Shown here: one piece after another, positions 21,284-45,183 of the stretch
Layout of the letters: every line of letters begins with the position of its first letter
How positions within the stretch are numbered: position 1 is the first letter of the stretch
Assembly: GCA_903861715.1 (NCBI GenBank)
Contig: CAIOVI010000019.1
Location: 5,936 to 69,935 of the forward strand
Direction: 5' to 3'
DNA from: an uncultured bacterium
Lineage (GTDB): Bacteria; Patescibacteriota; Minisyncoccia; Moranbacterales; GWC2-37-73
DNA: 64,000 bases
Notes under the pieces: generated by a model
What the model saw: only the letters and a program-made list of their open reading frames with translations
Databases searched by the model: none
Told to the model about the DNA's origin: nothing
Position numbers and translations under genes: made by a program

Positions 21284-21296
21284 GCGTTAATTTTTT

Positions 21297-21335
21297 ATGG
21301 AGGCTCAACCTCCATAATGGAGGTTGAGCCTCCAT
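21297..21335. repeat. GGAGG-hairpin palindromic repeat (copy 1): atggaggctcaacctccat a atggaggttgagcctccat
   Basis: Perfect 19-bp inverted arms. Each arm is itself a ggagg/cctcc mini-hairpin. The element is flanked by a T-run and an A-run. Confidence 0.7.
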
Positions 21336-21344
21336 AAAAACACT

Positions 21345-25511: not shown

Positions 25512-25702
25512 TAAAATTGATATAGGAAAATTATTCTTTTCAAGCAGCAAAAATGGGAGCAGAGTGGGGATGCGGGTTAATTATGGTTGCTGCGTAGCAG
25601 GCTACGTAACAAACGTAGCAAAATTAAAATAACCCTTATTAGGTAACAGCGTGGTGTGATAAATTACCACATTATCAAAAGTAAAGCGCATTTTTCAAAT
25701 CT

Positions 25703-25742
25703 GACATTTACTTTGATACTCGAAAGTATCAAAGTAAATGTC
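25703..25742. promoter_or_regulatory. perfect 40-bp palindrome (18-bp arms around cgaa) 30 nt upstream of the SEC-C gene start
   Basis: gacatttactttgatact cgaa agtatcaaagtaaatgtc. A second, imperfect copy lies at 26373-26411. Confidence 0.6.
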
Positions 25743-25771
25743 ACCAAATTTAAATTCATAAAAGGAGCACC

Positions 25772-26314
25772 ATGAGCAACAAATTTAACAATCTGAAAGA
25801 AGAAGATTTGATCAAATTTTTGGATGAGGGAAGTTTAAAAGAGGATGAAATTGCTGATTTTATGCAGGCCATGCAGAACAGGGGGCTGGCAGGTTCGATT
25901 ATGCAGTTGGATGACCCAAATTCCAGAGAGGGAAAATCAACTATTGAATATGTGAGCTATCATGAGAAAATTCCGCGGGAATATTTTTTGGAAATGCCAG
26001 AAGGTGAAATCATCAAAGCGCAGAAAACTTTGCTTTCGCAGGATTCCCTGATTGAAGATAAGAAAGTGGCATTGCTGGTTCTGGCTCATGCGAAAAAAGA
26101 GGTGGCACGTGAAGCCTTGCAAAAATATTCTGAAAATCCAAATGAAAGTCTGCGAACTTGGGCAACTTTGGCCTTGCAAGAATGTGAAAGTTTTTTGGAG
26201 AAAAATGAAAATGAAAAACCAAAAATTCTTTTTCAAAAAATCAAAAGCACCAAGCGAAATGACCCTTGCCCATGTGGGTCTGGCAAGAAATTTAAAAAAT
26301 GTTGCTTGGAATAG
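25772..26314 (+). CDS. SEC-C motif protein (helical N-domain, C-terminal CPCGSGKKFKKCC metal-binding tail)
   Basis: Canonical SEC-C motif at the C-terminus. It shares an ALxECExFL helical block with the protein at 40777-41418. Confidence 0.6.
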   Translation: MSNKFNNLKEEDLIKFLDEGSLKEDEIADFMQAMQNRGLAGSIMQLDDPNSREGKSTIEYVSYHEKIPREYFLEMPEGEIIKAQKTLLSQDSLIEDKKVALLVLAHAKKEVAREALQKYSENPNESLRTWATLALQECESFLEKNENEKPKILFQKIKSTKRNDPCPCGSGKKFKKCCLE

Positions 26315-33861: not shown

Positions 33862-35946
33862 ATGTCTCAAGAAAATGACATTTCCAAATTAAGAAACATT
33901 GGCATCATCGCTCACATTGATGGCGGAAAAACCACCACCACGGAGCGTATTTTGTTTTACACTGGGATCACTCACAAAATCGGAGAGGTGCATGAAGGCG
34001 CTGCCACGATGGACTGGATGGAACAAGAACAAGAACGCGGCATCACCATCACTTCTGCGGCCACTAAATGCAGTTGGAAAGGTCATCCAATCAACATCAT
34101 CGACACTCCTGGTCACGTGGACTTCACAGTGGAAGTTGAACGCTCATTGCGCGTGCTGGATGGCGCCGTGGTTATTTTCGATGGCAAAGAAGGCGTGGAA
34201 CCGCAATCTGAAACAGTGTGGCGACAAGCTGACAAATATCACGTGCCGCGTATTTGCTTTGTCAACAAAATTGACAAAGAAGGCGCTGATTTTGATTTTG
34301 TGTTGGGCTCAATTTGGAATCGCTTGACTCCTAATGCTTTGGCGCTGCAAATTCCAATTGGCGAACGCAGTGAATTTTCTGGCGTGGTTGATTTGATGAA
34401 AATGAAAGCCTACACTTTTGAAGGCGAGATGGGCATCAAAGTGGTGGAAAATGAAATTCCAGCTGAACTCGTGGAAAAAGCCAAACAGTGGCGAGAAAAA
34501 ATGATTGAAAAAATTTCTGAAACTGATGATGCTTTGACTGAAAAATATTTGAGTGGCGAAGAAATTTCAACGGAAGAACTGAAAGCTGCTCTCCGTCGAG
34601 GCGTGCTGGCTGCCAAACTTGTGCCAGTTTTCACGGGAACTGCCCTTCGCAACAAAGGCGTGCAATTGGTGCTGGACGCTGTGGTTGACTACTTGCCATC
34701 ACCTTTGGACGTGCCTCCAGTGATTGGAACTAATCCAAAAAATGGCGAAGAAGTTACACGAGCCGCTGATGACAACGAACCTTTTTCAGCCTTGGCTTTC
34801 AAAGTTGCCACCGATCCTTTCGTGGGACAACTAACCTTCTTTCGGGTTTATTCGGGAACTCTCAAGGCTGGTTCATATGTGGTTAATGCCACTAATGGAC
34901 AAAAAGAAAGAATTGGACGAATTTTGCAAATGCATGCCAATCATCGCGAAGAAATTGATGAAATTCGAGCTGGCGGAATCGGCGCCTTGGTGGGACTCAA
35001 AAGCACGACCACTGGTGACACGCTTTGCGATGAACAAAAGCAAATCATTTTGGAAAATATTGTTTTCCCAGAACCTGTGATTGACATTGCGGTGGAACCG
35101 AAGACTAAAGCTGATCAAGAAAAAATGGGACTTGCTCTTCGCAAATTGGCTGGAGAAGATCCAACCTTGCGATTGCGCACCGATGAGGAAAGTGGGCAAA
35201 CCATTATTTCCGGAATGGGCGAGCTTCATCTTGACATCATTATTGATCGCATGAAACGAGAATTTGGAGTGGAAGCTAACATTGGTCAACCGCAAGTGGC
35301 TTATCGCGAAACCATCAAAAGCGAAGCGCAAGCTGAAGGAAAATACATCAAACAGTCTGGAGGACGTGGACAATATGGACATTGCTGGCTCAAAGTGCGT
35401 CCGCAAGAAGAAAAAGGCAAGGGCTATGAATTCTTCGATGAAATTAAAGGTGGAGTTATTCCTCAAGAATACATCACTCCGATTAATAGGGGAGCCAAAG
35501 AAGCTTTGGAAAATGGTGTGTTGGCTGGTTATCCAATGGTGGACGTGATTGTGACCCTTTATGATGGATCTTTCCATGAAGTCGACTCCTCTGAAGCCGC
35601 TTTCAAAATCGCTGGTTCAATGGCCGTGCAAGAAGCGGTCAAACGCGCCAACCCAATCATCTTGGAACCTATTATGAAAGTGGTGGTGACTGTGCCGGAA
35701 CAATTCATGGGTGACATCGTGGGCGACATTAATGCTCGTCGTGGGATGATCAAGGAAATTAATGATCGCGGAGAGGGAAATGCTCGCGTGAAAGAAATTG
35801 AATCTGAAGTTCCCTTGGCCAATATGTTTGGATATGCAACTCAAATGCGATCCATGACTCAAGGACGTGCTTCATATTCCATGGAATTTGCGCACTACAA
35901 CGAAGTGCCAAAGAACGTGGCCGAGACGATTATCGCTAAAAAATAG
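33862..35946 (+). CDS. fusA: elongation factor G
   Basis: [10 protein letters not shown]1 motif, DTPGHVDF, and full five-domain EF-G length. Confidence 0.95.
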
Positions 35947-35989
35947 TTTCCGATGCGAAACTACGAATGAAATACGAATCTACGAAATT

Positions 35990-36016
35990 AAAAAACAGCC
36001 TGCGGGCTGTTTTTTG
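35990..36016 (+). terminator. rho-independent terminator after fusA
   Basis: cagcc tgcg ggctg followed by tttttt. Confidence 0.7.
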
Positions 36017-36058
36017 GTGGGGAAAATAAATAAATCTAAATTTAGCCAACCAACTGTT

Positions 36059-36092
36059 GGAGGCTCAACCTCCATATGGAGGTTGAGCCTCC
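36059..36092. repeat. GGAGG-hairpin palindromic repeat (copy 2)
   Basis: ggaggctcaacctcc atat ggaggttgagcctcc. Confidence 0.7.
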
Positions 36093-36190
36093 TTGCTAGC
36101 ACGCAACTTTATTTGATTTGGCATGCTTGGGGAGATAAAAAAGTTTTCATCATAAAGTAAACTTTCTTGATATTTCAAAAAGTTTAGCTT

Positions 36191-37153
36191 ATGATGAAAA
36201 CAGTGAAATGTGAAATAAATTTTTATTGTTCAAAAAATATGGCACTCTATAATTTACAAAATCATAAGCTTGTAACTATCAAAGAAGAATCATTTAAATT
36301 GGAAAAAGAAATTCAAATAATTACTGAAAAAAATCTTGAATATGTTTTTGGTTTGAAATTTGTAAAATCAGAACTAGCGTTACATAATTTGAGATTTGAT
36401 ACTTTAGCATTCGATGCTGAGAATAAAAGTTTCGTGATCATTGAATATAAAAGAGACAAAAATTTCAGTGTCATAGATCAAGGGTACGCATATCTTTCAT
36501 TAATGCTGAATAATAAGGCCGATTTTATTTTGGAGTATAATGAAAGTGCTAATACCAACTTAAAACGAGATGATGTCGATTGGTCTCAATCAAGGGTGAT
36601 ATTTGTTTCACCAGTTTTTTCAAAATATCAACAGCAAGCCATAAATTTTAGGGATTTACCGATTGAACTGTGGGAAATCACAAAATATCAAAATGATTTA
36701 ATTCAATACGATAGACTGAAGTCTCCAGAAACATCTGAGTCAATCAATAAGATTAGTAAATCAAGTGAAACAGTAGAAAGGGTAACTGAGGAAGTTAGGG
36801 TTTACACGGAAGATGATTATTTAAAAACTGCTGATGAAGAAATAGTAGATCTTTATGAAGAGCTTAAGAATCAAATTTTGAGCTTAGATAACAAAATTGA
36901 AATTGTGCCAAAAAAGAAATATATAGCATTTAAGGCATCTTCTAATTTTATTGATGTATTACCACAGAAGGGTAAGATTAAATGTTGGCTCAATATGCCA
37001 AAAGGGGAATTAAATGATCCTTATGGAATTAGTAGGGATGTTTCTGGAATTGGACACTGGGGCAATGGAGATTATGAGTTTAGTATATCTTCTTCGTCTG
37101 AGTTTATAAATTTGATGCCTTTAATAAAACAAAGTTACGAAAAGAATAAATAG
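36191..37153 (+). CDS. hypothetical protein with a PD-(D/E)xK-like N-terminal nuclease motif and a DUF5655-like C-terminal region
   Basis: FDTLAFD ... VIIEYK fits a D...ExK nuclease core. The C-terminal region resembles DUF5655-type domains. The assignment is tentative. Confidence 0.4.
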   Translation: MMKTVKCEINFYCSKNMALYNLQNHKLVTIKEESFKLEKEIQIITEKNLEYVFGLKFVKSELALHNLRFDTLAFDAENKSFVIIEYKRDKNFSVIDQGYAYLSLMLNNKADFILEYNESANTNLKRDDVDWSQSRVIFVSPVFSKYQQQAINFRDLPIELWEITKYQNDLIQYDRLKSPETSESINKISKSSETVERVTEEVRVYTEDDYLKTADEEIVDLYEELKNQILSLDNKIEIVPKKKYIAFKASSNFIDVLPQKGKIKCWLNMPKGELNDPYGISRDVSGIGHWGNGDYEFSISSSSEFINLMPLIKQSYEKNK

Positions 37154-37275
37154 TCTTATTTTACCAAGCTATCAAATCCTGCCCTCGAGAACTCGAGCTA
37201 TTTCAAAAAACAAAAAGCGTGTCAAAAAAATGCATATTTAGATAGTAAAGTTTCATTTTGAGCCTGATGAGAACC

Positions 37276-37301
37276 AGACCCATATATTAATATATGGGTC
37301 T
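37276..37301. repeat. perfect 26-bp palindrome of the CCATATAT family
   Basis: agacccatatattaatatatgggtct equals its own reverse complement. Confidence 0.6.
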
Positions 37302-37542
37302 GAATGAAAATTTATTAGGCACTGTAAAATGCACATGAGTTGTGCTGAAAATTTTTCTCTTGAGTTGTTAAAATTTGGCAATTGCCAAAAAATAACAACT
37401 TTTGCAAGCTTGGAATTTTTTTGGATATGTTAATTTTGGTAAATATGCGAGATTTGGCATATCTATTTTTTTAGTTGCATTTACTAGGTTTTGTTGTTAT
37501 TTTATAGGGGTGAGAAAATAATAATTCAGAAAATATAAGCTT

Positions 37543-38649
37543 ATGAAAAAGCATGAACTGCGAGAATGTATTGAAAAAATAAAGACAGGAAGCAAGGAAG
37601 AAATCAAACTTGCCAATAAAGCGCTTGAAAAAATTTGGGATGATTCTGACAGGGAATCGGCTGATCGAAAAGAGTTTCTTGAAATGTTTATTTCTGAATT
37701 CGGAAACTTTGAAGCTATTAAAAATGAGAGCAACAAGATTGCCTTCATTGGATCTTTGAAATATGCGTTTATGTCCGTGGATCAAGATGACCGCAATTTT
37801 GAAGCTTGCGCACGATTCGTGTTGTATTGTATGACAAATCCCTCTGGGCATATAAGGCAAGCTATAATCCATGTAGGTATCTATCTGATTCATTTTTTGC
37901 GTGCGTCTTTCAGCGATTTCAGAAAAAATGAGCAAGATGAGAAACTTATTTTGAAAAACCAAGAAAGAATTGGCAAGTTCATAACTGAATTGGATGCAAT
38001 GCTGGAACATTTTTATGAGAGAAAATACAAACGTTTTAAATACATTAGCAGTTTGCCACCGAGTGCGTATAAAAGTTTGGAAATCCTTAGAAATCAGCTT
38101 CTTTGCAGTGAGTACTATCAGAAAATATTTGAGGAATATCAAAACAAGAGATTGCGCACGGTTTTGCCGCAGCTTGTTTTGAAATATACGCAATTAGGTA
38201 TTAATACGGTTGAAGACGGATTTGTCTGTTCTCTTTGCCAGCGCAGAAAAAAGCGTTTAGGATCTTCAAATCCGTTGGCTAAAAAGCCATTGATAATTTG
38301 CGAGGACTGCACAATTGATGAATATATGAAAGATTATGGCTACAAAACTCGAGCCGCTGCCGCAGCTCGCAGAAGAAGAATTTTTGATGTGGGATATTTG
38401 TTGCAAGATTTACTAGTGGATCGATATTTAGCTGAAAATAATAAAAAACATATTAGGGAATTAAGTGAGCATGAGACTGAGCAGCTTTTTATGCTTGGGG
38501 CAGGTATGTACAATGAGCTTTTTGATAAAGGCGATAAAATTTTTCTTGAGGAAATTTTTAATCAAAAAGAAATCGAAGAAAAATTACAAGCAACTTTGGA
38601 TAAAGGTGAATTTGATTGGGATTTTTTCAAAGCTAATTTGGAGCAATAA
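37543..38649 (+). CDS. hypothetical protein (368 aa) with an internal CxxC...CxxC zinc-ribbon-like segment
   Basis: CSLCQRRKK ... CEDCTIDEY. No catalytic motif was recognised. Confidence 0.45.
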   Translation: MKKHELRECIEKIKTGSKEEIKLANKALEKIWDDSDRESADRKEFLEMFISEFGNFEAIKNESNKIAFIGSLKYAFMSVDQDDRNFEACARFVLYCMTNPSGHIRQAIIHVGIYLIHFLRASFSDFRKNEQDEKLILKNQERIGKFITELDAMLEHFYERKYKRFKYISSLPPSAYKSLEILRNQLLCSEYYQKIFEEYQNKRLRTVLPQLVLKYTQLGINTVEDGFVCSLCQRRKKRLGSSNPLAKKPLIICEDCTIDEYMKDYGYKTRAAAAARRRRIFDVGYLLQDLLVDRYLAENNKKHIRELSEHETEQLFMLGAGMYNELFDKGDKIFLEEIFNQKEIEEKLQATLDKGEFDWDFFKANLEQ

Positions 38650-38718
38650 AAGGGGGATGGGAATATAATTTTAAAGGAAGAGATTGTCTTAAATTTTAAA
38701 ATGTGCTAGATTGTTACT

Positions 38719-39039
38719 ATGGAAACGCAGATAACCGACCAAAAAATAGCTGAAATTGCCAAGCAAATTGCTGAGCAACAACAACCAGAAAAGATTATTC
38801 TTTTTGGTTCTTATGCTTGGGGAAAACCGCACAAAGATTCTGATGTGGATTTGTTTGTGGTGAAAAAAACTAACGACACTCGAAAAACTGCTCAGGAGAT
38901 TAATCAATTGTTTTTTCCCAGATTCTTTCCAATGGACGTGGTTGTTTACACTCCTTTTCAATTGGAAAAGGAGCTTAATTTGGAGGAACCTTTTGCTTTG
39001 AAAATAATCAACGAAGGCAGAATTTTATTTCAAAATTAA
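38719..39039 (+). CDS. minimal nucleotidyltransferase (MntA/HI0073-like antitoxin-type NTase)
   Basis: LFGSYAWGKPHKDSDVDLFVV contains the GS...DxD NTase fold motif. Confidence 0.75.
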   Translation: METQITDQKIAEIAKQIAEQQQPEKIILFGSYAWGKPHKDSDVDLFVVKKTNDTRKTAQEINQLFFPRFFPMDVVVYTPFQLEKELNLEEPFALKIINEGRILFQN

Positions 39040-39044
39040 AAGCA

Positions 39045-39446
39045 ATGAAAGAAGAAAATAAAAAAATTGTGCTTGAGCGTTGGTTTAAGAAAGCCCAAGA
39101 AGATGAGCTTAATGCTGATTCTATTTTGAGGCATCGCGATGGCACTCCTGGCGTAGTGTGTTTTCTTGCACAACAATTGGCAGAAAAATATTTGAAAGCC
39201 TGTCTGATTTCTTTTGATTTGGAAATCTTGAAAGTGCATGATCTTTTGAGGTTGATTTCAGTTTTGGAAAGCAGTGCTTCAGAAATAAAAATTTTAAGCA
39301 ATGAGGCAAATCTTTTGAATCAATTTTATATCGAAACTCGCTATGTGGGTGATTATCCCGATTTTTCCTGGGAGGATGCAGAGAAAGCCTATGAAGCAGC
39401 CAAAAAAATCAAGGAGTTTGTTTTGAGGGAAATCACGGAGAAATAG
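39045..39446 (+). CDS. HEPN domain protein (HepT-like partner of the upstream NTase)
   Basis: Helical protein of about 130 aa immediately downstream of the NTase, with a 5-nt gap. The Rx4-6H-like region is near the C-terminus. Confidence 0.65.
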   Translation: MKEENKKIVLERWFKKAQEDELNADSILRHRDGTPGVVCFLAQQLAEKYLKACLISFDLEILKVHDLLRLISVLESSASEIKILSNEANLLNQFYIETRYVGDYPDFSWEDAEKAYEAAKKIKEFVLREITEK

Positions 39447-39710
39447 CTTTCATGAAGCATGGAACACAAAACATGGAACATGGAAGCAAAAATTCAAATA
39501 TACGTTTAAAGGCAGTCTCGTAAGGACTGTTTTTTTGTTGCGAGCAAGCCATTTTTTGGACTTATCCACAGGTGGCGATTGACAGTGATATTGAAGAAGT
39601 GTTAAACTATCATTATTGGGCAAGCGGCCGCAAGCTCAGGCTAATAAAATTAAAATTAAAAATCCAAGTTAAGTTTTAGCTTTGATAACAAAATAATTTC
39701 GTTACCATTT

Positions 39711-39745
39711 GGGAGTTCGACTCCCATTGGGGGAGTCAAACTCCC
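39711..39745. repeat. GGAGG-hairpin palindromic repeat (copy 3, variant gggag/ctccc)
   Basis: gggagttcgactccc attgg gggagtcaaactccc. Confidence 0.65.
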
Positions 39746-39801
39746 TTGAGATGATAACGTTTGCTATCTTGATATAAAATAGAATTTAACTGGGCAAAAA
39801 A

Positions 39802-40056
39802 ATGAGCAACTATCAAAACTCCGCTCAAGGCGGAAACAATGTGTCTGAAAAAGTTTTTTCCAAAATGCTTCGCGCAGGAGGCAAAAATTATTTCTTTGAT
39901 GTCAAAAAAGCCAGCAATGGCAGCAACTATCTGACCGTGGCAGAGTCCTACAAAAATCAGCAAGGCCAGCAAGTCACCAATCGAGTGATGCTTTTCAAAG
40001 ATCATTTTCAAGATTTTTTCGCTTCACTGCAGGAAGCCAGCAACTTTTTGAAGTGA
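39802..40056 (+). CDS. DUF3276 (bacterial PUR-alpha-like ssDNA/RNA-binding) protein
   Basis: KNYFFDVKKASNGSNYLTVAES is the typical PUR-like repeat signature. Confidence 0.55.
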   Translation: MSNYQNSAQGGNNVSEKVFSKMLRAGGKNYFFDVKKASNGSNYLTVAESYKNQQGQQVTNRVMLFKDHFQDFFASLQEASNFLK

Positions 40057-40535
40057 AAATTGACATTGTTAATTGGCAGTTATATTATATCAATATGAAA
40101 AACCAAACCAAAAAAACTGAAGAAAAAGTTTATACCATGGGAGAAGTCGGCTCTTTGCTGGAAAGCATGGACGGTACCATGAAGATGATGTCAGAAAATT
40201 ATGTCGGTCTTGTGAAAACTCAGGATAAAATTCTTGCGGTTCAGTATGATATGAAAAATCAACTTGAACGAGTTGAAATTAGACTCAGTGGCGTCGAGGG
40301 CGGGCTTATTGGTGTCGAGGGCAGGCTCAGTGGTGTCGAAGGCAGGCTTAGTGGTGTCGAGGGAAGATTGGATGGAGTTGAGCACCGACTTGAAAAAGTT
40401 GAAACCAAAATCGACAGGCTGCAAGATGATATGGTGGAAGTGAAGTTTGAACTCAAGAAGAAAGTTGCTGTGGATGATTTCGAAAAATTGGAAAAGCGAG
40501 TCGTCAAGCTCGAAAAACTTTCCTATTCGCATTAG
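40053..40535 (+). CDS. coiled-coil protein with tandem heptad repeats (GVEGRLS)x5
   Basis: RLSGVEGGLIGVEGRLSGVEGRLSGVEGRLDGVEHRLE is encoded by 21-nt tandem repeats at about 40279-40385. The start could instead be the ATG at 40095. Confidence 0.5.
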   Translation: MKIDIVNWQLYYINMKNQTKKTEEKVYTMGEVGSLLESMDGTMKMMSENYVGLVKTQDKILAVQYDMKNQLERVEIRLSGVEGGLIGVEGRLSGVEGRLSGVEGRLDGVEHRLEKVETKIDRLQDDMVEVKFELKKKVAVDDFEKLEKRVVKLEKLSYSH

Positions 40536-40698
40536 CAACTTTGCGCCAAAAAATCTTCAGTCAAAATACCTCCAACTTTTTGCTTGGTGGTATTTTTTAT
40601 GGACCAGTCGCAATTTTTTTCAATTATGCTAAAATAAAATCGTGGAAATAATTTTTAAACTAATACAGAATCAACTTAATTAGTTGCAGCTATACGTT

Positions 40699-40733
40699 GG
40701 AGGTTCGACCTCCATTAGGGAGGTCGAACCTCC
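40699..40733. repeat. GGAGG-hairpin palindromic repeat (copy 4, variant ttcga/tcgaa)
   Basis: ggaggttcgacctcc attag ggaggtcgaacctcc. Confidence 0.7.
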
Positions 40734-40776
40734 TTGTAACCAACAGTAATTTAATTGATTTGGTATAAGTAAAAAT

Positions 40777-41418
40777 ATGACAAAAAAGTTAAAAAAAGAA
40801 GCTGAAATTAGTTTGGCAAAGCTTGAGGATAAAGAACTCTTGATAAAAGAGCTTAAAAAATTGGCACATGCTGGCACCAAGGAGGCGGTGGCAAAAATTG
40901 AAAAATATCTTGAAACAGAAAAAGATGCTGAAAGACGAGCTTACGGCGAAATGGCTCTGGAGGAATGTGAATTTTTTCTGTATGAACCAAGGAATGAAAA
41001 AGAGGAAAAGGAGCTGATGCTCTGTGAATTGATCAAGCGTCGCGAGCGTAGAGTTGATGATTTGACGATCAAAATTGACGGCGCTGAAATGAGATTGGAA
41101 AAATTAGCACTAGAAAAGAAGGTGCATAAAAAAGTTTTGGAGTCCAACAAAAGCAAGCAAGAAGATTGGCAGTATTTTTGGTTGGAAGATTTTGTGGGGA
41201 TGGAAAAAAATGAATTGCAAAAAATTGAAGATGAACTTGCCTATGAAGAAGCTTGGATTGAGCAGGCGAAGAAAATGATCACAACCGAAAGATATAAAAA
41301 AATTCCGTTTCGTTTTCTTGGACATTTCGACTTTGGTTTTGATGAAGATTTTCCAGAAGATGATGAGGATGCTTGCGATTGCGGTTGCTGCGAGAGTGAG
41401 GAAGAATTTAAATTTTAA
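40777..41418 (+). CDS. hypothetical coiled-coil protein with acidic Cys-rich C-terminus (paralogous block shared with the SEC-C protein at 25772)
   Basis: The MALEECEFFLYE block matches LALQECESFLEK in the SEC-C protein at 25772. The C-terminus is DEDACDCGCCESEEE. Confidence 0.5.
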   Translation: MTKKLKKEAEISLAKLEDKELLIKELKKLAHAGTKEAVAKIEKYLETEKDAERRAYGEMALEECEFFLYEPRNEKEEKELMLCELIKRRERRVDDLTIKIDGAEMRLEKLALEKKVHKKVLESNKSKQEDWQYFWLEDFVGMEKNELQKIEDELAYEEAWIEQAKKMITTERYKKIPFRFLGHFDFGFDEDFPEDDEDACDCGCCESEEEFKF

Positions 41419-41451
41419 AATTGAATCAATGAAATTGCTGTCGTTTGCAAT

Positions 41452-41485
41452 GAGGCTCAACCTCCATAATGGAGGTTGAGCCTCC
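41452..41485. repeat. GGAGG-hairpin palindromic repeat (copy 5)
   Basis: gaggctcaacctcc ataat ggaggttgagcctcc. Confidence 0.7.
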
Positions 41486-41502
41486 AATGGCTGAAGTTAA
41501 AT

Positions 41503-41528
41503 ATGTCCATTCAACCACATAAGGACAT
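41503..41528. repeat. GTCCAT...CCACATA...GGACAT hairpin element
   Basis: atgtccattcaaccacataaggacat is identical over 24 nt to 30596-30619. A variant lies at 42722-42746. Confidence 0.6.
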
Positions 41529-41560
41529 TTTGTTAACTCTGTATCAAACGTCTTATTTTT

Positions 41561-42709
41561 TTGATTAGAAATCCTTTATTATCTATGCTTTCTTACATTG
41601 AAATATCAAAAGAAAATCTGCTACATAATTTTGCGGCGTTAAAATCACTGGTGCGACCGGAAGTTAAAATTATTTCAGTTATCAAGGCCAATGCTTATGG
41701 GCATGGGCAAAATGAGGTTGCGCAGATTCTTGAGGAGGTCACTGACTATTTCCAAGTGGATGATCTGCAAGAACTCAAGCTGCTGCGAGAAGTTTCTCAA
41801 AAGCCAACCCTGGTGCTGGGCTATGTTGCAAATGATGAGATAGCAGAAGCGCTAAGCTTTGGAGGAACACTTTGTGTTTATGCTGAGAAACAAATTTTTG
41901 AAATTGAAAAAAATGCAAACAAACTTGGCAAAATTGTGGATGTGCATGTGAAAATTGATGCCAGGTTGGGCAGGCAAGGTGTGTTGCCAGAAAATGCGGA
42001 AACAATAGTTGAAATTTTGAAAAAGTGTCAGCATATTCGCGTTCAGGCTGTTTATTGTCACTTTGCAAACATCGAGGACACTGCTGATTTTTCACATGCG
42101 CAAAAGCAAATTGAGGTGTTTGAACAAGTTGTGGCTTTTTTTCGAAAAAATGGTTTCGAAAACATCAAAACGCACATGTCTGCCAGTTCCGGAGTTATGG
42201 TGTATGAAAATATTCAGGGAAAATCAGGCTTTATTCGTCCGGGTCTAAGCCTTTATGGAATGTGGCCCTGCGAAGAATTGAAAAAGAAATTGGAGAGTGT
42301 GGATTTTTCTTTGAAGCCAGTGATGAAATGGGTGTCGCACATTGCTCAAGTTAAAACTTTGCCAGTCGGTCATTCAATTGGCTATGGTTTGACATTCATG
42401 ACTTCTCGACCGACGAAGATAGCCATAATTCCCCAGGGTTATAGTGATGGCTATGATCGAGGACTTTCAAATAAGGGTGAAGTCCTGATTGGCGGTTCTC
42501 GTTGCCAAGTTTTGGGTCGCGTGGCGATGAATATGTTTGTGGTTGATGTGAGCCATTTGGAAACTGTCAGTGCAGAAGACGAAGTCGTGCTGCTTGGCCG
42601 ACAAGGCAAGGAAACTATTTCGGCTGAAGAGATAGCTGAAAAAATTGAAACGATTAATTATGAAATAACCACGCGAATCTCGCCTTTGCTGAAGCGGATT
42701 GTTTGCTGA
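41561..42709 (+). CDS. alr: alanine racemase
   Basis: VIKANAYGHG PLP-lysine motif, with the C-terminal domain YGMWP block. The start could instead be the M at 41585. Confidence 0.85.
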   Translation: MIRNPLLSMLSYIEISKENLLHNFAALKSLVRPEVKIISVIKANAYGHGQNEVAQILEEVTDYFQVDDLQELKLLREVSQKPTLVLGYVANDEIAEALSFGGTLCVYAEKQIFEIEKNANKLGKIVDVHVKIDARLGRQGVLPENAETIVEILKKCQHIRVQAVYCHFANIEDTADFSHAQKQIEVFEQVVAFFRKNGFENIKTHMSASSGVMVYENIQGKSGFIRPGLSLYGMWPCEELKKKLESVDFSLKPVMKWVSHIAQVKTLPVGHSIGYGLTFMTSRPTKIAIIPQGYSDGYDRGLSNKGEVLIGGSRCQVLGRVAMNMFVVDVSHLETVSAEDEVVLLGRQGKETISAEEIAEKIETINYEITTRISPLLKRIVC

Positions 42710-42721
42710 GAATTAAAATCC

Positions 42722-42746
42722 GTCCATGGGAGCCACATATGGACAT
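42722..42746. repeat. GTCCAT...CCACATA...GGACAT hairpin element (variant)
   Basis: gtccatgggagccacatatggacat. Confidence 0.5.
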
Positions 42747-42787
42747 CTTGCTAAATGTTTAGGGAAATGTGATATAATTAGCAAGCT

Positions 42788-43663
42788 ATGAATTTTGACT
42801 TACTGTTTCAAATTTTAAACACTTGGCAATTTAACACCATCGCTTTTCTGGTGACGGCGGTTGTCTTTGCGCAATATTACAAGCTGGCTGTTAATGGCAT
42901 TAAAAAGGATGGAGTTGCTTTGGTGATTTTTCAACTGATCGGGGCCGTGAGCATTTTGGTTTTGGTTCCGTTTTTTCCAATAAAAATTTCCAATGACCCA
43001 AAGATTTACGGCTTGCTTTTTGCAGCAGTTATTTTTTATACCATCAATGATAGAATCCAAGCGACTATTAGAAAAAATTTGGAAGTCTCGCTTTATTCAA
43101 TTCTGAACCAGTTTTCAAGAGTTTTTTTGGTGCTGTATGGCATTTTTATTTTTAAGCAAGAAATTGTTTTGTTTAAGTTGCTTGGCGGTGGCTTGATTTT
43201 GCTTGGAAATATAATTCTTTTTTATCGAAAAGGGAGGTTTACTTTTAATAAATATGTATTGCTGGCAATTGTGGCAGCTTTTTGCGTGGCAACTGGGCTG
43301 GTAATTGATGTTGATATTTCGACTAGGTTTAATTTGCCGATATATATCATGCTGACGCTCGCACTTCCAGCGCTGATTATTTTCATTTCAGAACGTTTTT
43401 CTTTCAAGGAAGTTTTTGTCGAGTTCGTCTCCTTCCGGCAGAAAAATTTTCTCATAACGGGAATTTCTTGGGGTCTGATGATCTTGTTCATGATTCGGGC
43501 TTTGCAACTTGGCCAAGTGGTTTTCATCGCTCCGCTGATGGCGGTTTCAGTTTTTCTGAATGTGGTGGCTGCATATTTTTTGCACAAAGAGCACGACCAA
43601 TTTCTTCGAAAGATTTTAGTGGCGATTATAATTATTTTAGGCGTTTATTTAATAGTAGCTTAG
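42788..43663 (+). CDS. DMT/EamA-like membrane transporter
   Basis: 291 aa, about 10 TM helices, two-repeat architecture. Confidence 0.5.
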   Translation: MNFDLLFQILNTWQFNTIAFLVTAVVFAQYYKLAVNGIKKDGVALVIFQLIGAVSILVLVPFFPIKISNDPKIYGLLFAAVIFYTINDRIQATIRKNLEVSLYSILNQFSRVFLVLYGIFIFKQEIVLFKLLGGGLILLGNIILFYRKGRFTFNKYVLLAIVAAFCVATGLVIDVDISTRFNLPIYIMLTLALPALIIFISERFSFKEVFVEFVSFRQKNFLITGISWGLMILFMIRALQLGQVVFIAPLMAVSVFLNVVAAYFLHKEHDQFLRKILVAIIIILGVYLIVA

Positions 43664-43806
43664 TGTTGCAGTATTTTTTAAGAAAAGTATAAAAACAGAA
43701 AGCATATTAAGCAAGGTTTAAAAAACTAACAATAGAGATAAAATCCTTTATTTAAGCCAATTATGAAAGATAAGAAGCTAGGGCCTGAAAAGCTAATTTT
43801 TGGCTC

Positions 43807-43834
43807 TTGACAGGATTTATTTATCGTGTAGAAT
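43807..43834 (+). promoter_or_regulatory. candidate tuf promoter (TTGACA-16-TAGAAT)
   Basis: ttgacaggatttatttatcgtgtagaat lies about 155 nt upstream of tuf. Confidence 0.45.
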
Positions 43835-43989
43835 AAACAAGTATTGAGTTTTTGATTTTCCTCGAAAGGAATTTTTTTAATTGCTTTTTTTGGAATATCA
43901 TGTTAAAATTTTTTAGTAATTAAATTATCTTAAGTAACCGCTGGTTGCGGGGCAAAAATAGCCCCCAGCAAAAGCGAAAAACAATTAAT

Positions 43990-45183
43990 ATGGCAGTAGG
44001 AAAATTTGAGCGAACAAAACCACATGTAAACGTTGGAACAATTGGACACGTTGACCACGGCAAGACAACTTTGACCGCGGCTATTTTGCATTGCCAAAGC
44101 TTGAAAGGTTTTGCGAAAGAAAGAGGTGTTAATGAAATTGACAACGCTCCAGAAGAAAGAGAGCGCGGAATCACCATTGCAACTTCACACTGTGAATATG
44201 AAACCGAGGCTCGTCACTACGCTCATGTTGATTGTCCAGGTCATGCTGACTACATCAAAAACATGATCACAGGAGCTGCTCAAATGGACGGATCTATTAT
44301 CGTGGTTAGCGCTACTGATGGTCCTATGCCTCAGACTCGCGAACACATCTTGCTTGCCAAACAAGTTGGTGTGCCAGCAATCGTGGTTTTCATCAACAAG
44401 GTTGATATGGTTGATGACGCTGAATTGATTGACTTGGTGGAAGCTGAAATTCGAGAACTTTTGACCAAATATGAATTCGACGGAGAAAACGCTGCTGTTG
44501 TTCGCGGCAGCGCTACCAAGGCTTTGGCTGCAACATCTATTGAAGATCCTGCCGCTAAACCAATTTATGACTTGATGGATGCCCTTGATGCAAAAATTCC
44601 AGATCCAATTCGTGACACTGACAAGCCATTGTTGATGCCTATCGAAGACATCTTCTCAATCGAAGGTCGTGGAACGGTGGTGACCGGAAGAATCGAAAGA
44701 GGTGTGATCAACATCAATGAAGAAGTTGAAATCGTGGGTCTTCGCCCAACCGCCAAAACTGTGGTAACTGGAATTGAAATGTTCAACAAATCATTGGACA
44801 AAGGACAAGCCGGAGACAATGCGGGACTTTTGCTTCGCGGAATCAAGAAGGAAGATGTTGAACGCGGACAAGTTTTGGCCAAGACTGGCTCAATCACTCC
44901 CCACACTGAATTTGAAGGAGAAATTTACATTTTGACCAAAGAAGAAGGCGGACGACACACTCCATTTTTCAAAGGATACAAACCACAATTTTACATCCGA
45001 ACAACGGATGTGACTGGTGAAGTTATCCTGCCAGAAGGAACTGAAATGGTTATGCCTGGAGACACAATCAGCTTGACTGTCAAATTGATTGCCCCAGTTG
45101 CGATGGAAGAAGGAATGCGCTTTGCTATTCGCGAAGGAGGACGCACCGTTGGAGCCGGAGTTGCTACCAAAATCATCAAGTAA
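43990..45183 (+). CDS. tuf: elongation factor Tu
   Basis: [18 protein letters not shown] and NKVD motifs. The start is at [12 protein letters not shown]. Confidence 0.95.

Follow-up and report, generated by a model that had tools for sequence, protein, structure and literature searches.

We analysed the interval between fusA and tuf in a stretch of 64,000 nucleotides (nt) of DNA, referred to as the window, to which all positions relate. The host lineage is Moranbacteria, which belong to the Candidate Phyla Radiation (CPR), and elongation factor G (EF-G) of the window is 78% and 73% identical to that of Candidatus Moraniibacteriota. The left anchor of the interval is fusA (33862-35946, + strand), an open reading frame (ORF) of 694 amino acids (aa) whose product accounts for the 78% match, and the right anchor is tuf (43990-45183, +), which encodes EF-Tu and is supported by its ORF as well as by the comparison with relatives. 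The fusA terminator and the tuf promoter enclose nine ORFs, all on the + strand, and four copies of a GGAGG palindrome. The gene content of the interval differs between strains, and the GGAGG repeat is the most interesting feature of the region. The terminator can be read in the sequence as AAAAAACAGCC-TGCG-GGCTGTTTTTT, i.e., a hairpin followed by a T-run (35990-36015, +), and the promoter as TTGACA-16-TAGAAT (43807-43834, +, 11/12 match), with homology to the relatives resuming at about 43731-43738. Thus, both signals as well as all nine genes proposed by the first-pass annotation of this DNA are present, the latter with the coordinates and the strand given there. The G+C content of the interval's left half is 0.30-0.37 vs 0.44-0.47 in fusA and tuf.

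The first gene of the interval, p1 (36191-37153, +, start codon probably at 36239), matches the PADLOC profile PDLC04945 of the candidate defence family PDC-S18 (E 5.9e-131, 434 bits, residues 17-316 on profile positions 1-301 of 302). That is, the hidden Markov model is matched over its full length, and p1 has the layout of this family, a single gene with DUF5655, which Pfam places at the C-terminus. Of its earlier label as a PD-(D/E)xK/DUF5655-like protein, the DUF5655 part is thereby supported, while the PD-(D/E)xK part comes down to a motif D70...E85-x-K87 in the N-terminal half. For the N-terminal 200 residues, a single-sequence AlphaFold model reaches a predicted local distance difference test value (pLDDT) of only about 25 and is unusable for fold comparison; p1 also gave no match among PDB sequences. 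A PHROGs search of p1, p2, p5, p6 and p7 returned only weak coiled-coil noise, and NCBIfam gave no match above its cut-offs.

It is followed by p2 (37543-38649, +), a protein of 368 aa in which a HEAT-like solenoid is combined with a CxxC...CEDC zinc ribbon and an Arg-rich helical domain, and for which Pfam reports nothing significant. Its close family comprises 17 members among 5.8 billion sequences, all of them from CPR; a profile search extends this to 282 representative clusters of wider relatives, and the two halves of p2 are also found alone or fused to TPR, UPF0149 or SEC-C modules. Directly downstream are p3 (38719-39039, +), a minimal nucleotidyltransferase (MNT; Pfam Polbeta/NTP_transf_2, weak PADLOC PDC-S09 matches), and, 5 nt apart, p4 (39045-39446, +), a HEPN-domain protein of 133 aa (PF05168, Pfam 1.5e-22). 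The catalytic MNT motif GSx(9-12)DxD is present in p3 as GSx10DxD (GSYAWGKPHKDSDVD at residue 30). PADLOC has no match for p2 or p4. Among eight contexts of p2 homologs, MNT-HepT genes are neighbours in three, AbiEii in two (in one of them three genes away) and a Fic gene in three, once only 4 nt apart. Judged by such guilt by association, p2 appears tied to toxin-antitoxin and defence neighbourhoods, with no fixed partnership. Possibly, p2 is a new kind of accessory partner for toxins that transfer nucleotides (HepT/MNT, AbiEii, Fic); the inhibitory motif of Fic antitoxins, [ST]xxxE[GN], is absent from p2.

The right half starts with p5 (39802-40056, +), a DUF3276 (PUR-like) protein (Pfam 2.3e-15), and the overlapping p6 (40053-40535, +), a coiled-coil protein with a (GVEGRLS)n repeat that corresponds to 3.7 tandem copies of 21 nt. 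Next is p7 (40777-41418, +), a coiled-coil protein of 213 aa with a Cys-rich acidic tail. It belongs to a Moranbacteria family (45 homologs), shows nothing significant in Pfam, and other Moranbacteria have its homologs in unrelated genomic surroundings. The interval closes with the alanine racemase gene alr (41561-42709, +, Pfam Ala_racemase_N and Ala_racemase_C) and an EamA/DMT transporter gene (42788-43663, +, Pfam EamA). No defence signal was found for DUF3276/coiled coil, p7, alr or EamA. Of the proposal that the region holds an undescribed defence or addiction module, this much is supported: the left half carries genes of defence or addiction type, judged by PDC-S18, MNT/HEPN and the toxin-gene neighbours of p2 homologs. 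A coherent new system is not seen. An undescribed defence module limited to p2 and its neighbours is a possibility on these gene families.

We compared the interval with those of related strains. In the sister strain (contigs L081/L082), fusA is 90% identical to the window on the nt level, the p2 copy is 99% identical, and the gene order reads fusA - B3_4 - MNT - HepT - p2 - MNT - HEPN - DUF3276 - coiled coil (132 aa) - MNT - radical SAM - tuf. Within the interval, blastn finds only one block common to both, namely 37466-40598 (+, 95% nt identity), which covers p2, MNT, HEPN, DUF3276 and the coiled-coil gene. To its left, the PDC-S18 gene of the window is replaced in L081 by B3_4, MNT and HepT; to its right, p7, alr and EamA face MNT and radical SAM. 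The resulting breakpoints (36018/36219, 37466, 40598 and 43738, blastn) all fall outside the palindromes. A third relative (L093/L094), with a p7 of 80% identity, has the order murB - hpf - p7 - MNT - HepT - tuf. MNT/HEPN or MNT/HepT modules thus recur at the fusA-tuf locus in three lineages, and the cargo as a whole consists of defence-type genes (PDC-S18, MNT/HEPN(HepT)) and others (alr, EamA, DUF3276, coiled coil, p7, B3_4, radical SAM). The gene for a 134-aa MNT is 94% identical between L081 (10893-11354) and L093 (1002-1463), compared with 88% for tuf of the same two genomes, which suggests a recent exchange of this module. Furthermore, the same terminator of 34 nt, AAAATACCTCCAACTTTTTGCTTGGTGGTATTTT (40563-40596, +, in the window), flanks modules in the window, in L081 and in L093/L094. 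As a module junction that is reused in relatives, it is found in L090-92 and L093/94; L081 has two copies, and in L093 it follows HepT.

These comparisons bear directly on how the interval was first described. Its accessory, strain-variable nature is supported by the different gene contents of the window, L081/L082 and L093/L094, and the comparison of the fusA-tuf junction with relatives, which had been proposed as a check, reveals no shared gene order and hence no ancestral arrangement. On the other hand, the island was said to start exactly at the palindrome at 36059; here, the sequence common to L081 already ends at 36018, and the palindrome is the centre of an indel of about 114 nt. The picture of a single inserted island does not hold either, given that the fusA-tuf link is already broken in CPR relatives, with unrelated fillers.

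The latter is apparent from 80 genomes with related fusA genes. In non-CPR genomes, the fusA-tuf gap is 3-408 bp long, mostly below 175 bp, whereas CPR loci show gaps of 211, 469, 629, 781, 1064, 1166, 1375, 1808, 3582 and 5078 bp. The gap of the closest relative among the 80 loci exceeds 3750 bp, and some CPR loci have no tuf within 10 kb of fusA. The contents of the CPR gaps differ from those of the window, i.e., pilin-like proteins, glycosyltransferases, large secreted proteins and small ORFs are found, and homologs of the nine island proteins are absent from all 80 fusA loci. Such unrelated fillers, together with the lack of island homologs, imply that the fusA-tuf link was loosened across this part of CPR and that the gap was filled independently in each lineage.

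The GGAGG palindromes form a second layer. Copy 1 has its core at 36059-36092, a perfect 17+17-nt palindrome that consists of two GGAGG-N5-CCTCC sub-hairpins; this core is part of the indel mentioned above (36019-36132), a degenerate long-form element whose arms align with the long-form family and which is absent from L081. Copy 2 (39711-39745) is a GGGAG/CTCCC variant that precedes p5 by 56 nt; L081 still has it, in decayed form. Copy 3 is the centre (40699-40733) of a MITE-like element, i.e., one resembling a miniature inverted-repeat transposable element, of 102 nt (40664-40765) with imperfect TAC...GTA terminal inverted repeats (TIRs). It is flanked by TAA duplicates (40661-40663 and 40766-40768), precedes the p7 start codon by 11 nt and is cleanly absent from L093/L094, where the same flanking p7 is found next to the empty site AAAC-TAA-GTAAAAATATG (AAAC-TAA-GTAAAA). 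Copy 4 (41424-41485, core 41451-41485) has one long-form arm, is inverted relative to copy 3, with which it shares a 64-nt inverted repeat, and is present but decayed in L094. Copy 5 is located outside the island (21292-21340, core 21299-21333) and extends to 24+24 nt. The half-site pattern yields 14 matches vs 0.46 expected by chance, and the palindrome copies fold at -26 to -33 kcal/mol with z-scores from -4.3 to -8.1. We also considered the palindromes as intrinsic terminators and rejected this, since no U-tract follows the stem: there is no T-run behind it, and the flanks carry T upstream and A downstream.

With regard to the first-pass annotation, the further copies it had placed at 39711, 40699 and 41452 exist (the fourth begins at 41451), joined by the fifth outside the island, but the cassettes into which they were thought to subdivide the island find no counterpart, as none of the L081 breakpoints falls on a palindrome. 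Nor do the palindromes act as cassette junctions: the 102-nt element is missing from a relative that keeps p7, and the same core is found in at least 113 unrelated contexts.

This last number results from a metagenome scan for the 34-35-nt core, which matched at least 120 contigs; the matches listed, on which all following counts are based, hold 127 copies with 113 distinct flanks. The arms are complementary in 125/127 copies, though the search pattern allowed 16 combinations, and T at -1 and A at +1 of the core are found in about 73% of the copies. A long form of about 100 nt has TIRs, and its arms align across 7 copies, 5 of which show TAA or TTA (TWA) duplications on both sides. We thus observe several features of a MITE: a short non-coding element with TIRs, a target-site duplication, dispersed copies, and filled as well as empty sites. 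The bare 35-nt core without the long-form arms makes up more than 90% of the copies. In 19 of the 113 distinct copies the palindrome extends by at least 4 nt, and by up to 8 nt, into the copy-specific flanks, vs 0.4 such copies expected; copy 5 of the window (21292-21340) is an example. The core may have been inserted at the centre of an existing palindrome, or the palindrome may have been extended by template switching.

A large part of the copies, 49/127 (about 39%), is located inside ORFs of at least 100 aa. Restricted to ORFs of at least 150 aa, 38/43 copies are read in the frame that encodes GGSTSxxEVEPP. According to Pfam and PDB, the host genes of intragenic copies encode UvrA, MetRS, AlaRS, ArgRS, GatB, UvrC, Elp3-like radical SAM proteins and glycosyltransferases; examples are L109:2550-2584, L119:6936-6970, L180:4731-4765, L130:1509-1543 and L178:1849-1882. 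Aligned to MetRS and UvrA proteins of solved structure, the peptide stands opposite a gap. Moranbacteria MetRS homologs of about 80% identity either lack the peptide, show it in decayed form, or have different inserts in that loop. We further note that this loop, from LTGLGWDG to WPADVQLI, is hypervariable among the MetRS homologs P0063-P0182, with GGSTSIMEVEPP and decayed forms of it. Other recurrent inserts in the Moranbacteria MetRS loop are ILRLSLRKNKGLALEKLEF, AFAKASAGKDGDFDKF and NFFQSPAFPLREQSHRNSSKPDFSKF, and the inserts together suggest several families of intragenic repeats.

Taken together, we consider it likely that the locus combines a recombination and insertion hotspot with a separate, dispersed selfish repeat that has a MITE-like long form. 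Within this explanation, the interval 36019-43737 would be a hotspot bounded by the fusA terminator and the tuf promoter and filled with a mosaic of separately transcribed modules rather than with a single island or a cassette array, namely PDC-S18 (p1), p2-MNT-HEPN, DUF3276-coiled coil, p7 and alr-EamA. Such modules are gained, lost and swapped between close strains, presumably by homologous recombination at common intergenic terminator or promoter sequences. Recurrent cargo are modules of the MNT/HEPN/HepT toxin-antitoxin type and a candidate defence gene. The site may tolerate cargo because tuf has its own promoter, and addiction-type genes may persist there because they are resistant to loss; that is, selfish genes of toxin-antitoxin or candidate defence type would remain where insertions do no harm. 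The GGAGG palindromes would constitute a separate layer, i.e., cores of a dispersed selfish repeat, the long form of which behaves like a MITE, while the 35-nt short form is scattered in intergenic DNA and in frame within housekeeping genes. Copies seem to have accumulated in the spacers of the island, where they would at most add stable RNA hairpins to transcripts. Of all this, we directly observe the variability between strains, the families of the genes and the anatomy and distribution of the repeat, whereas the recombination mechanism, any activity in defence or addiction and the way in which the short form spreads are inferred. For the stronger statement that the GGAGG core is an undescribed mobile element of Moranbacteria/Parcubacteria, which enters spacers as well as, in frame, surface loops of essential proteins and leaves a decaying GGSTSxxEVEPP peptide, we regard the case for and against as about evenly balanced.

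Four other explanations were weighed against this one. Very improbable, in our judgement, is that the palindromes serve recombination, as attC-like or similar sites, and delimit a mobile cassette array. Their position in the spacers between gene groups, the bracketing of p7 by two inverted copies with 64 nt in common and the location of 4/5 window copies in the island would fit such an array. However, besides the sister-strain breakpoints, which miss the palindromes, copy 3 belongs to an element of 102 nt that has a TAA duplication of its own and is missing where p7 stays in place, such that p7 did not arrive with the element. Moreover, the palindrome-bounded segments hold 4, 2, 1 and 2 genes instead of one each, no integrase is among the nine island proteins, and about 39% of the listed copies elsewhere lie inside genes. 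The palindromes are also perfect or nearly so and have neither extrahelical bases nor a GTTRRRY core (GTTGGAG at 36056 fails at the final Y). That they are host RNA or DNA signals under selection, i.e., terminators, mRNA stabilisers or protein-binding sites, and not selfish repeats, appears improbable, too. The hairpins are very stable, their arms co-vary in 125/127 listed copies, and every island copy is upstream of a gene; REP (repetitive extragenic palindromic) elements in enterobacteria have such host roles. Yet the stems lack a U-tract and are flanked by T upstream and A downstream, copies are decayed or absent in close relatives with an unchanged gene layout, many copies are translated parts of proteins, and the co-variation of the arms could also stem from template-switch repair of quasi-palindromes.

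For the genes, p1, p2, MNT and HEPN (36191-39446) might instead form one new multi-gene defence or abortive-infection system. This would agree with the PDC-S18 match of p1, with the p2-MNT-HEPN block kept at 95% identity in two strains, with HepT, AbiEii or Fic toxin genes near p2 homologs and with the modular build of p2, which resembles many defence proteins. We nevertheless think it unlikely: p1 is swapped for other genes in the sister strain and separated from p2 by a 389-nt spacer with its own palindrome, from which it follows that p1 is not part of a fixed system. The neighbours of p2 vary by genome, which is more in keeping with a resident of defence islands than with a fixed partner, and the fusion partners of its modules are TPR, UPF0149 and SEC-C instead of nucleases or other effectors. 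Against it also count the missing RNase motif of the HEPN protein and the missing PADLOC match for p2 or p4. Finally, an ancestral housekeeping gene order, in which the genes serve translation or cell-wall functions beside fusA and tuf, is hardly credible. It is true that alr and EamA are ordinary, that many CPR have a broken fusA-tuf link, that p7 is found upstream of tuf in two lineages and that a small conserved ORF in front of tuf is kept in many CPR relatives; yet gene content differs even between strains of 90-95% nt identity. In addition, none of the nine proteins occurs downstream of fusA in the 80 other genomes, p7 homologs are located elsewhere in other Moranbacteria, and the conserved ORF in front of tuf is absent from the window.

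Several observations weigh against our own explanation, i.e., a hotspot mosaic with a separate selfish repeat. No recombinase, integrase or transposase is among the nine island proteins according to Pfam, such that the mechanism of exchange is an assumption of ours. In the 133-aa p4, the HEPN RNase motif Rx4-6H has no match; going by this motif, p4 may not be a toxin. PDC-S18 is a candidate family only, derived from genomic context, and our literature search returned no paper naming it. For the repeat, no autonomous element or enzyme that moves it was identified, and a target duplication is not detectable for the 35-nt form. The clustering of 4/5 window copies within the island, which covers 12.5% of the window (binomial P about 0.001, post hoc), could point to a local role and not to passive accumulation. 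Finally, all compared relatives are metagenome assemblies, so that mis-assembly at repeats is possible; the window layout itself is no assembly accident, because three independent samples reproduce it.

We also related both layers to known systems. Rickettsia palindromic elements (RPEs) are short palindromic repeats of a reduced genome, found between genes as well as in frame in housekeeping genes (PMC10969869, PMC1779305). In the same manner, the GGAGG repeat is dispersed intergenically and in frame in unrelated housekeeping genes, where it adds a conserved peptide in tolerated loops. The likeness is by analogy only, as the host of the GGAGG repeat is CPR and that of RPEs Alphaproteobacteria. 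The core of 34-35 nt (about 12 aa) is also shorter than the roughly 100-150 bp of RPEs, and it is a near-perfect palindrome of two GGAGG-N5-CCTCC sub-hairpins that forms the centre of longer elements as well. With MITEs of the IS5 / PIF-Harbinger 'Tourist' type, the long form has in common the imperfect TIRs, the TAA/TTA duplications, the empty site and copies in different genomes; TWA target duplications are associated with IS5/PIF families. It differs in that no parent insertion sequence or transposase was identified and that more than 90% of the listed copies are bare cores without arms or recognisable duplication. REPs and REPINs, which are mobilised by RAYT transposases, are likewise abundant short palindromes with inverted doublets that form long hairpins, are mostly intergenic and are possibly exploited as RNA hairpins. 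The GGAGG consensus, however, has no GTAG-type head, a RAYT gene was not seen (a point that takes a complete genome to judge), and REPs are extragenic by definition, in contrast to the share of intragenic copies given above. Neither on palindromic elements or MITEs of CPR/Patescibacteria like the GGAGG repeat nor on its peptide did we find anything in the literature, and a scan of viral contigs for the palindrome gave no match.

On the gene level, p3 and p4 resemble MntA-HepT / MNT-HEPN pairs in being a small nucleotidyltransferase (GSx10DxD) next to a HEPN gene, with true MNT-HepT pairs at the same locus in relatives, but the HEPN protein of the window is of the PF05168 type without Rx4-6H. 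The interval as a whole is similar to defence islands and hotspots, with core genes that stay constant on both sides, a cargo that is specific to the strain and tends towards toxin-antitoxin or defence genes, and a lower G+C content in the left half. In contrast to these, the site lies inside the classical str operon (rpsL-rpsG-fusA-tuf), has no integrase, tRNA gene or att repeats, and its cargo is partly housekeeping (alr). A scan for tRNA and tmRNA genes as possible integration targets found none.

If this explanation holds, one of the most conserved junctions of bacteria would be a place where CPR tolerate the deposition of accessory and addiction genes, with consequences for our view of how streamlined genomes keep their gene order. 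Metagenomes would allow the defence and toxin-antitoxin content of CPR strains to be compared at this locus, as fusA and tuf are easy to use as anchors. If it is a mobile element, the GGAGG repeat would be, after Rickettsia, another independent instance of 'selfish DNA in protein-coding genes' and a source of loop hypervariability in CPR housekeeping proteins. If confirmed as an RPE-like element of CPR, it would be usable for strain tracing and might account for inserted segments in marker proteins of CPR that interfere with alignment and tree building. How a palindrome of 35 nt can spread with no obvious transposase is a further question that it raises.

Some further features were noted on the way. 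Behind the left indel, a segment at 36133-36218 (+) carries a promoter-like TTGATA-17-TATGAT inside a 23-nt inverted repeat (36143-36165 / 36179-36201); it is 86% identical in L081 despite the different gene downstream and is possibly an operator or a recombination anchor. Downstream of p1, in the window-specific left variable segment, lies a 30-nt palindrome (CCAGACCCATATATTAATATATGGGTCTGA, 37274-37303) that is unrelated to the GGAGG family. A terminator-like hairpin with a T-run (39513-39536, +) follows the p2-MNT-HEPN unit and is conserved in L081. It is part of a spacer of 355 nt (39447-39801) that hardly differs from the sister strain outside a variable patch at about 39573-39600 and holds a TG-extended promoter-like site (39579-39608) as well as a GC-rich stretch (GGGCAAGCGGCCGCAAGCTCAGGC) without Rfam match. 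Rfam also had no match at the gathering threshold in the whole window, or at E up to 1 in 35900-44000.

The copy number of the (GVEGRLS)n repeat at 40284-40363 varies among strains and samples, giving p6 proteins of 160 vs 132 aa, the latter in L081 and L090. For p7, a paralogy to the SEC-C protein encoded at 25772-26314 had been put forward; what supports it is a weak similarity (35% over 77 aa, E 6e-4). Directly upstream of this SEC-C-motif protein of 180 aa, there is a 19+19-nt palindrome (25701-25744). In L094, remnants of the start and the end of EamA are located upstream of p7 (1595-1681 and 1705-1796), i.e., in an order that differs from the window, where EamA is complete; this points to deletion and rearrangement inside the hotspot. 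The MNT gene at L081:10893-11354 has lost its HepT partner, which suggests an orphan gene of antitoxin type. The small conserved ORF directly upstream of tuf in many CPR genomes, which a search of the window did not find, has an N-terminus like MSKQLKQVINLAKKTGDRIIVFD; examples are L003:3897-4319, L004:13414-13707, L005:5729-6010, L006:12087-12419, L008:12750-13124 and L060:12742-13098. Finally, a second, longer repeated element (with flanks such as TTTAAAACACAAAACCTAATATTATCTC) has the same 35-nt core at its centre and is found on the contigs L095, L096, L126, L129, L135, L143, L149, L152, L204 and L209.

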